NCBI RefSeq assembly: GCF_049075655.1
Contig: NZ_CP157522.1
Coordinates: 800,001-864,000 of the forward strand
Length of the DNA stretch: 64,000 nt
Direction: 5' to 3'
DNA from: Methanothermococcus sp. Ax23
Lineage (GTDB): Archaea; AGJL01; Methanococci; Methanococcales; Methanococcaceae
Shown: positions 12,879 through 15,204 of the stretch, piece by piece
Layout of the letters: each line of letters opens with the position of its first letter
Numbering within the stretch: the first letter of the stretch is position 1
Translations under genes and position numbers: made by a program
Notes under the pieces: generated by a model
Seen by the model: only the letters and a program-made list of their open reading frames with translations
Database searches by the model: none
What the model was told of the DNA's origin: nothing

Positions 12879-13619
12879 TTACAAAATATCATCAAATGTC
12901 CATTTACGATTTAATCTACTGGATTTACCAAATAACTTCGTTGAAACCTCTAAAAAGTTGTAAATCATATCGCACTGTTTTAATATGCTGTCAAAATTAT
13001 TTCTATCTATCATTGCAAATTTACACAATTCTTCAATCTTTTCGTCATCAAGAAGTATCAATGACCCATATTCACCCCCCCACTGTTTGTTGTAAATATA
13101 ATCTATTCCCCATAACATCAAATGCGGTTGGCAGTAGCTCCTTAAATTGAACACATTGCTATCATCTACTGGATTTGGCTCTAACGCTGAAATAAAGTTT
13201 AATGCTCCCCTTACACTGTTTTGACTAAATGATATATTTTCAATACCTTCTTCCAAAGCTCGTTCTTTTACTTTTTGTTCAATATCTTGAAGATTTATTT
13301 TTTTTTCACAGTATTCGTTGTAAAGTATATCTATTACATTTCGGTATGACCATCCAATAGGTTCTTCTGATGAATACATCTTATAATGCAAATAATTGTT
13401 AAATGTTATTTCGTCCATTTCTAAAAGTTTTTCAATGTCATTGTTAGATATTATTTTATTTTTTATGATTATGCTCTCATCAATTACCGTTTTTATATAT
13501 TGAGGTAGAGAGTTTTTTATTTCATCCCTTTTGGATGAGTTATTGTAGTGTATTACTTCCAATATTTCCCTTATCACTTCTGGCTTAGCGTTATGTCTAA
13601 TATGGTATCCTCCTGCCAT
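12879..13619 (-). CDS. Hypothetical protein, putative BrxA-like (wHTH) component
   Basis: 246 aa, overlaps the TGT gene; size, helical pattern and context fit BrxA/SspB-like proteins. No diagnostic motif. Confidence 0.4.
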   Translation of the reverse strand: MAGGYHIRHNAKPEVIREILEVIHYNNSSKRDEIKNSLPQYIKTVIDESIIIKNKIISNNDIEKLLEMDEITFNNYLHYKMYSSEEPIGWSYRNVIDILYNEYCEKKINLQDIEQKVKERALEEGIENISFSQNSVRGALNFISALEPNPVDDSNVFNLRSYCQPHLMLWGIDYIYNKQWGGEYGSLILLDDEKIEELCKFAMIDRNNFDSILKQCDMIYNFLEVSTKLFGKSSRLNRKWTFDDIL

Positions 13620-14566
13620 TTTTTCACCGTTTCATGTGTTACTATAATGTTATGCAATGACCGATACATTCGGTTTTTCCGCAATTCATTCAATGAACTA
13701 CAAAAATAACACTCATGATTATTTTTTAACTCATTGAATACATAATGGTATCCAACATAGTGGTTTTTACATATCCTCGGACTCTTCCCCGTTATATTTA
13801 CCCTTTTATTAGGCAAAAATACATCTCCAAATCCCCCTGCCTTATCCCAACTACTACTATCAAAGCTATCTATATATTCTCTAATCCTATTTATAGAACT
13901 CGGTCCCCCTATGCCAAAGGCATGCAATTCAAACCCATAATCTTTTGCCAATATGGATAAATATCTTAAATTTTCTAAACTCTTTTTTGTTAATATGTTT
14001 ATAGCATTATTTTTCCCACTTGTTCCGAAACTTCCAAATCCAATCCTTTTAACATTTAGCTCAGAATAACTATTGACGCAATGGTATATCTGCTCCTTGG
14101 TGATTCCCTGGACAACGGGGATAAATTTTTTTTCATATTTGCCGTTAAACTCTTCGCTAAAACTTTTCGCACAGTAGATGGTTTCATGAACCTTCCCCCA
14201 TGCAACTTCAACACTATCAGAGGAAACCGGCGGAGAATCTGGAAGAACATACCAATCTCCCCATTTATTATCTTCGTAGAATTGCTTCAACTTGCATAAA
14301 AGGTCTTCCATTGTCAATTTGCCCTGTTGAACATAAAAACCACCACTGTCAAACATTATTGTTGAGTTTTCTTCCTCTTTTAATCTTCTAATCATGTTTG
14401 CAGTCCCCTGCGATGCCATGATTGGCGTAAATATTATATTTTCAAACGCCCATTTTTTAGGTTCATGTTTTTTCAACAAATCCCACATTTTTTTAATTTG
14501 ACCGGGAGATATCGTCATAGATGCAAAAAATTCCACCATAGTTTCCCTTAATAGATTTTTCTCCAT
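13574..14566 (-). CDS. tRNA-guanine transglycosylase (TGT/DpdA)-like base-exchange enzyme
   Basis: MFDSGGF, LPDSPP, IPVVQG, LHAFGIG, DSFDSSSW and HECYFC...LHN Zn site; 330 aa, no PUA domain. Possible start 14539. Confidence 0.85.
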   Translation of the reverse strand: MEKNLLRETMVEFFASMTISPGQIKKMWDLLKKHEPKKWAFENIIFTPIMASQGTANMIRRLKEEENSTIMFDSGGFYVQQGKLTMEDLLCKLKQFYEDNKWGDWYVLPDSPPVSSDSVEVAWGKVHETIYCAKSFSEEFNGKYEKKFIPVVQGITKEQIYHCVNSYSELNVKRIGFGSFGTSGKNNAINILTKKSLENLRYLSILAKDYGFELHAFGIGGPSSINRIREYIDSFDSSSWDKAGGFGDVFLPNKRVNITGKSPRICKNHYVGYHYVFNELKNNHECYFCSSLNELRKNRMYRSLHNIIVTHETVKKWQEDTILDITLSQK

Positions 14567-14598
14567 TTTTTGAATATTATTATATTAAATAACGTATT

Positions 14599-15204
14599 TT
14601 ATGCAATATATTTAGCCATTAAAACCAAGTCCTTATTTCCCCTAGTATGATTTTTTAAAATACCTTCTATTACAAAACCATTTTTCACAAAAAATCTCAA
14701 TCCATTTTCATTGGATTTTGGAACTTCTGCATATATTTTGCGTTTTCCCATCTCTACACATTTGTTCTCTAAAAAAGATATGAAGTATTTTCCCAAAGCA
14801 TTATCTTTATGTTTTTTATCAACTGCAATATAGTTGATTTTTAAGTAGCCTGGTTTCTCACCATAAACCATAACTCCAATTAAATCATCATAATCATTTA
14901 AATTTTTCTGTTTTCTGTTCTGATTGAATATACCAACAATATGTATGGTTTTTGGTCTAGTAATCCATTGTTTTATGGAAGATTTATGGACAAATCCCCA
15001 AATATTTGAGTAGGACAACAATATCTCTTGAACTTTATCAACATGATCAACATCAACAATATAATCAACCGTAAGATTAACTTTAACTTTATCTGCGGAT
15101 TTACTGGAAATTTTTTCATTTTTGAATTTTTTATATAAATCATAAATTTCAAACAGCATTGCTTGCTGTTTAGTTAATAATTCTTCGTTCTGCTTCGATA
15201 CCAT
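14599..15204 (-). CDS. GNAT-family acetyltransferase
   Basis: INYIAVDKKHKDNALGK (motif A) and NENGLRFFVKNGF (motif B). Confidence 0.85.
   Translation of the reverse strand: MVSKQNEELLTKQQAMLFEIYDLYKKFKNEKISSKSADKVKVNLTVDYIVDVDHVDKVQEILLSYSNIWGFVHKSSIKQWITRPKTIHIVGIFNQNRKQKNLNDYDDLIGVMVYGEKPGYLKINYIAVDKKHKDNALGKYFISFLENKCVEMGKRKIYAEVPKSNENGLRFFVKNGFVIEGILKNHTRGNKDLVLMAKYIA

Follow-up and report, generated by a model that had tools for sequence, protein, structure and literature searches.

A BREX-related capture operon with a TGT-like enzyme and a GNAT acyltransferase in Methanothermococcus sp. Ax23: comparative evidence for a candidate preQ1-derived DNA mark

Introduction

What could serve as the self mark of a BREX-related defence operon that encodes no DNA methyltransferase? 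The question is raised by a stretch of 64,000 nucleotides from Methanothermococcus sp. Ax23 (assembly GCF_049075655.1, contig NZ_CP157522.1, positions 800,001 to 864,000; hereafter the window, whose own coordinates are used below), in which a protein related to the TGTs, the base-exchange enzymes of tRNA, is encoded next to a GNAT acyltransferase and several BREX-like proteins. We assign the locus to the "BREX-related capture" (BRC) system with HerA, in its GNAT/TGT version, and not to classical BREX. The company kept by its relatives, in particular genes that make or may make preQ1, points to a preQ1-derived DNA mark acylated by the GNAT, a full mechanism to which we assign a probability of roughly one half. 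In what follows G000 is the genome of the window, and other G numbers and the L numbers denote the genomes and loci with which it was compared.

The minus strand carries co-directional, almost gap-free genes from 18105 to beyond the window start. Those of the system are, in the order of transcription:

15863-16798, minus strand: HGD-D family Fe-S protein, 311 residues, candidate subunit of a preQ0-to-preQ1 reductase (Pfam HGD-D, 96 bits)
15170-15856, minus strand: BadF/BcrA/HgdC-type activator ATPase, 228 residues (Pfam BcrAD_BadFG, 83 bits)
14599-15204, minus strand: GNAT acyltransferase, 201 residues (Pfam Acetyltransf_1)
13574-14566, minus strand: predicted base-exchange enzyme of the TGT/DpdA superfamily, 330 residues, PUA-less (motifs, profiles, fold)
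12879-13619, minus strand: p246, SspB/BrxA-like protein (DUF4007-type), 246 residues (predicted fold, synteny)
7990-8499, minus strand: p169, small P-loop NTPase, the BrxB-like STAND NTPase of BRC, 169 residues (Walker A, synteny)
4269-8006, minus strand: BrxC-like large ATPase ("DUF6079" of BRC), 1245 residues (Walker A, synteny)
3239-4198, minus strand: short PglZ-type phosphatase-fold protein, 319 residues (weak BREX-PglZ matches, synteny)
2077-3249, minus strand: HerA/FtsK-type translocase, 390 residues (Pfam DUF87, NCBIfam HerA)

The TGT-like Enzyme and Its Substrate

The translated TGT-like protein carries the motifs MFDSGGF (D73), LPDSPP (D110) and DSFDS (D233/D236), followed by H284-E-C286-Y-F-C289 and H305. 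In an alignment of 35 family sequences D73, D110, D236, H284, C286, C289 and H305 are invariant and D233 varies, so that in DSFDS it is the second Asp that is conserved. When the family was aligned by hhalign with five bacterial TGTs (probability 90.6%, E 1.3e-6), its invariant residues fell on the TDSGGFQ, FDEC and DxFDCV motifs and on the CxCxxC...H zinc site, which in TGTs supply the general acid/base Asp, the base-binding Asp, the nucleophile Asp and the zinc ligands. An AlphaFold (AF2) model computed on the 35-sequence alignment (pLDDT 86.5, pTM 0.88) retrieved archaeosine TGT (1j2b, 1iq8) and the Zymomonas TGT in Foldseek (E about 1e-10, TM 0.60-0.65), identity to archaeosine and bacterial TGTs being ~15-18%. 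The predicted fold, the three Asp residues and the zinc site, all in common with these enzymes, place the protein firmly in the TGT superfamily. Many members of its family have the precomputed annotation PF01702; phmmer with the single protein against the PDB gave chance matches only. Since the protein stops after the barrel and the zinc subdomain, it has no PUA domain. The initial annotation had described just such a PUA-less barrel of 330 residues with Asp motifs and an HxCxxC..H zinc site, and translation, hhalign and Foldseek bear it out. Elsewhere the same genome encodes a full-length archaeosine TGT of the canonical kind (319 bits) as well as another TGT-family protein, which makes the TGT-like protein an extra, third paralogue.

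The family profile finds DpdA (7ui4, E 0.013) as its best PDB match, ahead of ArcTGT (0.025) and Thermotoga TGT (0.05), and the sole NCBIfam match of the protein, below threshold, is again DpdA. Like DpdA, the TGT-like protein is a PUA-less barrel of the TGT superfamily encoded in a defence locus, it has the "SxDS" and "HxxGI" motif variants that are common to its family and DpdA, and it would exchange guanine for a 7-deazaguanine in DNA. The two systems differ in that the partners here are a GNAT and an SspB/BrxA-like protein, that preQ1 is favoured over preQ0 as the base, and that DpdB and DpdC are missing; searches with Pfam, PADLOC and NCBIfam found no DpdB, DpdC or DNA methyltransferase among the neighbouring ORFs, in agreement with the earlier remark that no dpdB or dpdC is recognisable.

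In fold and in its best structural matches the TGT-like protein resembles tRNA enzymes, and canonical TGTs use their zinc subdomain for tRNA binding. Together with the fact that HGD-D/BadF elsewhere accompanies a tRNA pathway (QueA, TGT and QueH; see below), this raises the alternative that the GNAT/TGT-like pair modifies tRNA or another RNA, of the host or of a virus, for the purpose of defence. In contrast to the tRNA TGTs, however, the TGT-like protein lacks PUA or other C-terminal domains for tRNA recognition and is encoded in a defence operon, the genome already has its tRNA enzymes, the motifs are nearer to those of DpdA than to those of TGT, and the operon partners (HerA, SspB/BrxA-like, BrxC-like and PglZ) are DNA-directed. 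An RNA target thus seems improbable. A nucleic acid substrate, and more specifically DNA, is favoured because the zinc site is kept, DpdA is closest in both the PDB and NCBIfam, the neighbour is SspB/BrxA-like, and the other partners are directed to DNA.

The setting of a sister of the TGT-like protein (382 residues, 27% identity, no Pfam match), encoded in L053 (6306-11002), also speaks for DNA. A DnaE-type polymerase gene immediately precedes its own, with two DNA methylases and Mrr-like domains close by and no BRC genes.

The GNAT as a Dedicated Partner

The TGT-like family is rare: among 1.84 billion cluster representatives there are 107 homologues with an E-value of 1e-30 or lower, and 259 when the limit is set at 1e-10. 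Fifty-five loci were collected from species-representative genomes of Methanocaldococcus, Methanosarcina, haloarchaea, Chloroflexota, Poribacteria, Latescibacterota and others. A GNAT of the family seen in the window is present in 48 of the 55, in 31 as a fusion with the TGT-like protein, in 6 as a separate gene just upstream of it and in 11 as the gene that follows HerA directly. GNAT-TGT fusions, 457-518 residues long, account for 42 of the best 120 homologues listed.

In the window, the two genes are separated by 32 nt. The GNAT matches Pfam Acetyltransf_1 (32.5 bits versus a cut-off of 20.7, E 1.2e-7), and Ala takes the place of the first Gly in its R/Q-x-x-G-x-G/A loop. A hidden Markov model (HMM) trained on GNAT domains of the GNAT-TGT fusions recognizes the window protein with an E-value of 2.2e-8; since the same HMM finds matches in 48/55 loci, the GNAT can be regarded as the dedicated, indeed obligatory, partner of the TGT-like enzyme. 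Chance adjacency was ruled out on these counts of family members and fusions, and the functional pairing first proposed in the initial annotation has become that of one conserved module.

One type of pairing would not involve modification of a nucleic acid at all. By analogy with Cap10 of type IV CBASS, the TGT-like protein might bind or process a 7-deazaguanine-bearing protein, itself a possible target of the GNAT. A TGT-family protein does have such a role in an anti-phage system, according to the accessible text of the report (10.1101/2025.04.06.647259), and the GNAT could acetylate proteins, RimI, far under the cut-off, being its best NCBIfam match. On the other hand, Cap10 is described there as having no zinc site and a remodelled nucleic-acid surface, whereas the TGT-like family keeps its H/C/C/H residues and three Asp, and Pfam, PADLOC and NCBIfam revealed no QueC-like Cap9 partner in the operon. 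Protein conjugation is, of all the alternatives considered, the one to which we attach the least weight.

QueF in Haloarchaeal Operons Points to preQ1

QueF converts preQ0 to preQ1 in an NADPH-dependent reaction, and the product has a primary amine. In haloarchaeal loci L011 and L015, a QueF gene overlaps the start of the TGT-like gene by 4 nt (Pfam E 1e-35 and 2e-33, respectively); it lies 54 nt upstream in L021 and ends the same co-directional array in L023. Among 201 sampled Halobacteria genomes, QueF was found in nine and the TGT-like protein in eight, all of which have both (four of the eight carriers, G115, G142, G169 and G250, were first found via QueF); the frequency of QueF in genomes without the TGT-like gene is 1/193. 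In six carriers QueF is directly upstream, and in the remaining two it is 8-17 kb off. That QueF occurs in or beside all eight haloarchaeal operons speaks for preQ1 over preQ0 as the base, which would provide the GNAT with a primary amine. The operon-encoded QueF also backs a 7-deazaguanine chemistry as such. The initial annotation had assigned preQ0 to the enzyme, a choice that the comparative evidence no longer favours.

A second set of genes follows the GNAT in haloarchaeal locus L081 (G087:C8, 383-8752), comprising a p246-like protein, a P-loop protein, a BrxC-like protein of 1325 residues and a PglZ protein of 813 residues. QueF is located at the end of this array.

The host pathway to preQ0 is accessible in the window genome, since QueC is encoded elsewhere in it and QueD within the window, where the earlier reading had put a queD near 37469 and where the gene was located at:

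37499-37954, plus strand: QueD (PTPS), host preQ0 pathway (PF01242, E 8.8e-23; G000:C1:837499-837954)

Use of preQ0 itself, as in Dpd systems, should be considered in this light. The TGT-like enzyme would insert preQ0 into DNA, the GNAT would acetylate another target, for example a protein component or a small molecule, and QueF and HGD-D/BadF would act after insertion or be incidental. All archaeal hosts make preQ0 (QueC), DpdA uses preQ0 and furnishes the nearest PDB and NCBIfam matches, and dPreQ0 is the product proposed in the accessible text of PMC12839542. However, this scheme leaves unexplained why QueF is found in or beside 8/8 haloarchaeal operons as against 1/193 otherwise, and why a GNAT should be obligatory and often fused, since preQ0, its N2 aside, is a poor acyl acceptor. 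We consider it unlikely, if less so than an RNA target.

HGD-D/BadF in Methanogens and the Missing QueF

If preQ1 is the base, the methanogen carriers pose a problem of supply. QueF (PF14489) was not found in G000, G061-G063, G467, G023, G025, G030 or G032, which include the Methanocaldococcus and two Methanosarcina carriers, and in each of these genomes an HGD-D gene (PF06050) adjoins the system. The control genomes of M. jannaschii and H. volcanii likewise yielded no match to QueF. BadF (PF01869) directly follows HGD-D wherever this was examined, namely in the window, L001-L003, L080, G467, G345, G383 and G355. The pair precedes the GNAT in Methanococcales, the BadF gene of the window overlapping the GNAT start by 35 nt, and it comes directly after HerA in Methanosarcina. 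Among 60 relatives of the window genome, HGD-D orthologues of 76-78% identity are confined to the four genomes that have the TGT-like gene and lie beside it. HGD-D and BadF thus belong to the TGT-like/GNAT module. The opposite view, that the GNAT is a piece of an unrelated HGD-D/BadF metabolic operon, was ruled out, because the block travels whole in the four relatives; it is also contradicted by the position of the pair at the opposite end of the operon in Methanosarcina.

Two HGD-D fragments were seen in genomes in which no TGT-like gene was detected. One, at a contig end (G015:C69:10906-11091), is 82% identical over 62 residues, and the other (G028:C1:600443-600595), degenerate and containing a TGA, is 63% identical over 51 residues; they may represent a cut contig and the remnant of a lost island, respectively.

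The same pair turns up with queuosine genes. Of 201 genomes sampled from the class of G063, 14 encode an HGD-D orthologue (E up to 1e-50), namely the 2 with the TGT-like gene and exactly the 12 that possess QueA. These 12 archaea and G057 have a bacterial-type TGT and QueH in addition to QueA; HGD-D and QueH are each present in 13/13, QueF in 1/13 and a QueG domain in 0/5 examined. BadF is beside HGD-D in all four QueA-positive genomes examined (L080/G057, G345, G355 and G383), and in G057 (L080, G057:C17, 515-4183) 25 nt separate the pair from QueA and a bacterial-type TGT, which are divergently encoded. Because QueA, TGT and QueH are present and QueF is found in one of the 13, the conversion of preQ0 to preQ1 is the one queuosine step left without a gene. 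Replacement of the epoxyqueuosine reductase by HGD-D/BadF, in contrast, is disfavoured by the presence of QueH in 13/13 and of QueF in only 1/13.

From this distribution in kin genomes, HGD-D/BadF emerges as a candidate non-orthologous preQ0 reductase. The pair occupies the genomic place of QueF in methanogen operons but has no sequence relation to it, and nitrile reduction would be an activity beyond those reported for the HGD-D/BadF family. The HGD-D protein has three invariant Cys residues (C40, C68 and C267); its best PDB matches are the double-cubane cluster protein (DCCP; 7yyl_C/6eno_A, E 1e-4, weak) and HadC (3o3m_B). The BadF-type ATPase matches 4eht (E 1e-28) and DCCP reductase (7yyl_E, E 2.5e-25). 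Among solved structures, the pair is most like ATP-driven Fe-S reductases and dehydratases, the double-cubane cluster protein and its reductase (6eno, 7yyl) among them. BadF is proposed to be the electron-delivering partner of HGD-D, itself the putative catalytic subunit of an ATP-driven reductase. The more specific proposition that HGD-D/BadF is the missing archaeal counterpart of QueF, both for a hitherto overlooked archaeal queuosine pathway (QueA, bacterial-type TGT and QueH) and for defence, and that the GNAT/TGT pair of the methanogen operon writes N-acetyl-preQ1 into DNA, is offered as a tentative one, with the odds against it.

In bacteria, the base would come from the host. In 18 of the bacterial genomes examined, from Poribacteria, Latescibacterota, Gemmatimonadota and Isosphaera, QueF and QueC are encoded outside the operon, and a Desulfotomaculum metagenome-assembled genome of 1.8 Mb has QueC and no match to QueF.

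Relation to BREX and to BREX-Related Capture

The BRC system has been described in silico from 45 taxa (PMC12839542). In the accessible text of that publication its components are PglZ, a BrxC-like DUF6079 protein (ORC/Cdc6 AAA+), an active STAND NTPase, a BrxA-like DUF4007 protein, presented as a tripartite DNA-binding protein, and a HerA/FtsK translocase that is universal in BRC; a GNAT and a TGT occur in a subset of loci. The pair was proposed to mark DNA in the place of the methyltransferase, a mark "perhaps restricted to dPreQ0" (PMC12839542). The window appears to match this GNAT/TGT form gene by gene and in the same order, from the GNAT and TGT homologue through the DUF4007/BrxA-like protein, the small P-loop NTPase and the BrxC-like protein to the short PglZ and HerA. 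To the published seven components it adds HGD-D/BadF upstream and a Cas10f-Cas5-Cas11-Cas7 cassette within the operon. The accessible text gives dPreQ0 as the end product and makes no mention of QueF, HGD-D/BadF or a III-F insertion. The core idea of GNAT/TGT marking is therefore already published as a prediction, and what is new here is the preQ1/QueF evidence, the association with HGD-D/BadF and the nested III-F cassette. In the literature, "BREX-related capture" was found only in that paper and its preprint, and nothing was found that unites 7-deazaguanine, acetyltransferase, QueF and DNA modification; TGT, DpdA, GNAT, QueF and BREX are all absent from PMC13082051. A review of gut metalloenzymes was the single paper found to contain preQ1, QueF and 2-hydroxyacyl-CoA dehydratase together, and a single paper, on DPANN, was found for queuosine with QueA and QueH in archaea and methanogens.

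The individual assignments vary in strength. The p246 model (pLDDT 94) has SspB (6lb9, TM 0.63) and BrxA (7zge, probability 1.0, E about 0.03) as its best fold matches, and none of 32 p246 orthologues matched DUF4007 or any other Pfam family. The p169 protein has a Walker A motif, GDGGVGKT, at residues 52-59, and its orthologues give weak AAA/nSTAND3 matches. In the BrxC-like protein, which matched no Pfam family, Walker A (APYGYGKT) is located at residue 71; syntenic orthologues exist across the related loci, and that of L021 shows a weak match to BrxC_BrxD (E 0.005). The PglZ-type protein matches NCBIfam BREX_PglZ_3 and PglZ_1_B weakly and below threshold (E 5.5e-4 for the window), and its orthologues match BREX_PglZ_4 (E 2.5e-6), also below threshold. 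HerA is recognized by Pfam DUF87 (E 2e-14) and by the NCBIfam model of anti-phage-associated HerA (E 6e-19), and its orthologues are 48-84% identical across the related loci.

The gene set is conserved well beyond Methanococcales. Clustering by locus placed the TGT-like protein in 55/55 loci, the cluster that holds p246 and the BrxC-like protein in 51, p169 in 43, PglZ in 41 and HerA in 38, many of the loci ending at contig ends. The order TGT-like, p246, p169, BrxC-like, PglZ, HerA is kept in archaea and bacteria. In 30 of the 55 loci, a protein with sigma-70 regions 2 and 4 and a long C-terminal extension is encoded directly upstream of the TGT-like protein (for instance L004, 7624-9999). 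It is found in bacterial loci only, with no archaeal instance, and may serve bacterial BRC operons as a dedicated regulator.

Like classical BREX, the locus has BrxA-like, BrxC-like and PglZ-like parts and presumably relies on an epigenetic self mark. It differs in that BREX contains PglX, whereas no methyltransferase domain, of the PglX type or other, was found in any ORF from 1 to 18105, in the presence of HerA and of a short PglZ (319 residues), and in that its PglZ and BrxC matches are far under the curated cut-offs. The first reading of the locus as BREX deprived of its methyltransferase therefore holds as regards the BREX-related character of the operon and the missing enzyme, but the system is the published BRC with HerA.

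The core of BRC lacks the GNAT and TGT in some taxa (PMC12839542, accessible text), so the pair could be an add-on, and the covalent Asp-ribosyl mechanism of a TGT could end in an abasic site. The TGT-like protein might then be an effector directed at the DNA of an invader, from which it would remove guanine or into which it would put a damaging base, with no marking of self. Nevertheless, a dedicated supply of preQ1 by QueF or HGD-D/BadF, and an acyltransferase, suit a biosynthetic mark better than damage, and the GNAT/TGT-like pair stands in for the missing methyltransferase of the operon. Such an effector is very improbable, slightly more so than an RNA target.

A Proposed Mechanism and What Speaks against It

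A preQ1-derived, acylated DNA mark would most probably arise as follows. The host archaeosine pathway (QueD, QueE and QueC) would supply preQ0, and HGD-D/BadF, as an ATP-driven, low-potential Fe-S reductase encoded by the operon, would reduce its nitrile to the aminomethyl group of preQ1; elsewhere this step would fall to the QueF of haloarchaeal operons and, in bacteria, to the host's own QueF or to salvage. By means of its Asp nucleophile and general acid, the TGT-like enzyme would exchange a guanine of DNA for the 7-deazaguanine, probably assisted by the SspB/BrxA-like protein that always follows it. Before or after insertion, the GNAT would acylate the aminomethyl amine, yielding an N-acyl-preQ1 self mark, and the part of the system formed by BrxC-like, PglZ and HerA would spare DNA that bears it.

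Several observations weigh against this mechanism. As regards the enzyme, the match to Pfam TGT (PF01702) is below the gathering threshold (24.5 versus 26.3 bits), and the DpdA thresholds of Pfam (PF23859, 16.1 versus 27 bits) and NCBIfam (NF041059, 19.8 versus 200) are missed. The protein is not a DpdA orthologue, so that DNA specificity is not transferable from DpdA, and DpdB and DpdC are missing from its locus. The BRC core can exist without a GNAT/TGT mark, because the pair is restricted to a subset of loci in the accessible text of PMC12839542, and the only publication found on the system is in silico.

Others concern the base. Neither QueC nor QueF was found in three Chloroflexota hosts (QueF being sub-threshold at best), and in the Fervidibacter host QueF was not found and the QueC-family match is weak. 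All four retain a canonical TGT (E about 1e-150), so salvage fits, but the notion of a universal supply of the base within the cell is weakened. One haloarchaeon (G129) has QueF without the TGT-like gene, and QueF and HGD-D coexist in one QueA-positive archaeon (G485). In L015, QueD, QueE and QueC follow the GNAT after a gap of 188 nt; since they are the only copies and given this gap, they may be host archaeosine genes beside the island. Lastly, the genomes are kin and the genes physically linked, hence there are fewer independent events than the co-occurrence counts suggest.

A Type III-F Cassette Nested in the Operon

Between p246 and p169, the BRC operon is interrupted by four co-directional genes (8512-12856, minus strand) with junctions of 22 and 12 nt:

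10607-12856, minus strand: Cas10 of type III-F, 749 residues, first gene of the cassette (PADLOC Cas10a|Cas10f, E 1.3e-180)
9958-10605, minus strand: Cas5 of type III-F (PADLOC Cas5_IIIf, E 1.3e-87)
9381-9968, minus strand: Cas11 of type III-F (PADLOC Cas11f, E 1.2e-59)
8512-9384, minus strand: Cas7 of type III-F, last gene of the cassette (PADLOC Cas7_IIIf, E 1.8e-98)

All four (Cas10f, Cas5, Cas11 and Cas7) match III-F profiles strongly; Cas10f has an N-terminal HD motif, and no GGDD motif was seen in it. The four genes are an insertion into the BRC operon, present in the window genome only, and the initial annotation made no mention of them. In L001 the homologues of p246 and p169, which flank the site, are 8 nt apart, and Cas genes occur in none of the 55 related loci. 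The same cassette is free-standing in G033 (Cas10 73% identical, between housekeeping genes) and in G008 (Cas10 54%, with a PLD-SNF2 helicase and an Eco57I-type methylase alongside), whereas here it is nested in a second defence operon. A role as a regular BRC component was ruled out on both counts. The window contains no CRISPR array, the arrays of the genome being at G000 C1:147787-150863 and 1163584-1166273; no adaptation genes adjoin the cassette, and no target-site duplication was seen at its junctions.

Misassembly is unlikely, as contigs of three runs (X1-X3) from three studies, which may be of the same strain, span the junction of p169 and Cas7f without differences; the p246/Cas10f junction was spanned by no contig piece among those listed. 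Elsewhere, the contigs of all three public runs have an additional T after 4286, where the BrxC-like gene nears its 3' end, and C instead of the window's G at 13747, which corresponds to H274D at a non-conserved position of the TGT-like protein. Both differences are a strain variant or an assembly error.

Boundaries and Neighbouring Genes

Two further genes flank the system on the same strand:

16822-18105, minus strand: MiaB/MtaB-like radical-SAM methylthiotransferase with TRAM domain (ends 23 nt before HGD-D)
1-2027, minus strand: PHP + SMC-like ATPase (Pfam PHP, PHP_C, AAA_23), its C-terminal end beyond the window start

The MiaB/MtaB-like gene has no counterpart in L001 and L002, which sets the boundary of the island in the window genome between it and HGD-D. 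At the other end, the PHP + SMC-like (AAA_23) ATPase, of 869 residues at full length (G000:C1:799418-802027), follows HerA after 49 nt; with no homologue in the 55 related loci it is outside the conserved system, and it could represent an additional nuclease effector or a defence gene in its own right.

Implications

The III-F cassette is a clean natural case of nesting, with one defence module lying inside the transcription unit of a second. If preQ0 is converted to preQ1, inserted into DNA and N-acylated as proposed, BREX-type immunity would gain a new chemical class of self mark, and DNA a new natural 7-deazaguanine hypermodification. The published guess of dPreQ0 would give way to a sharper prediction, dPreQ1 or dPreQ1 with an additional 42 Da. 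The widespread and hitherto unexplained HGD-D/BadF pair of archaea would acquire a function as a radical or low-potential nitrile reductase, and the QueF gap would be closed in archaea that have queuosine genes.

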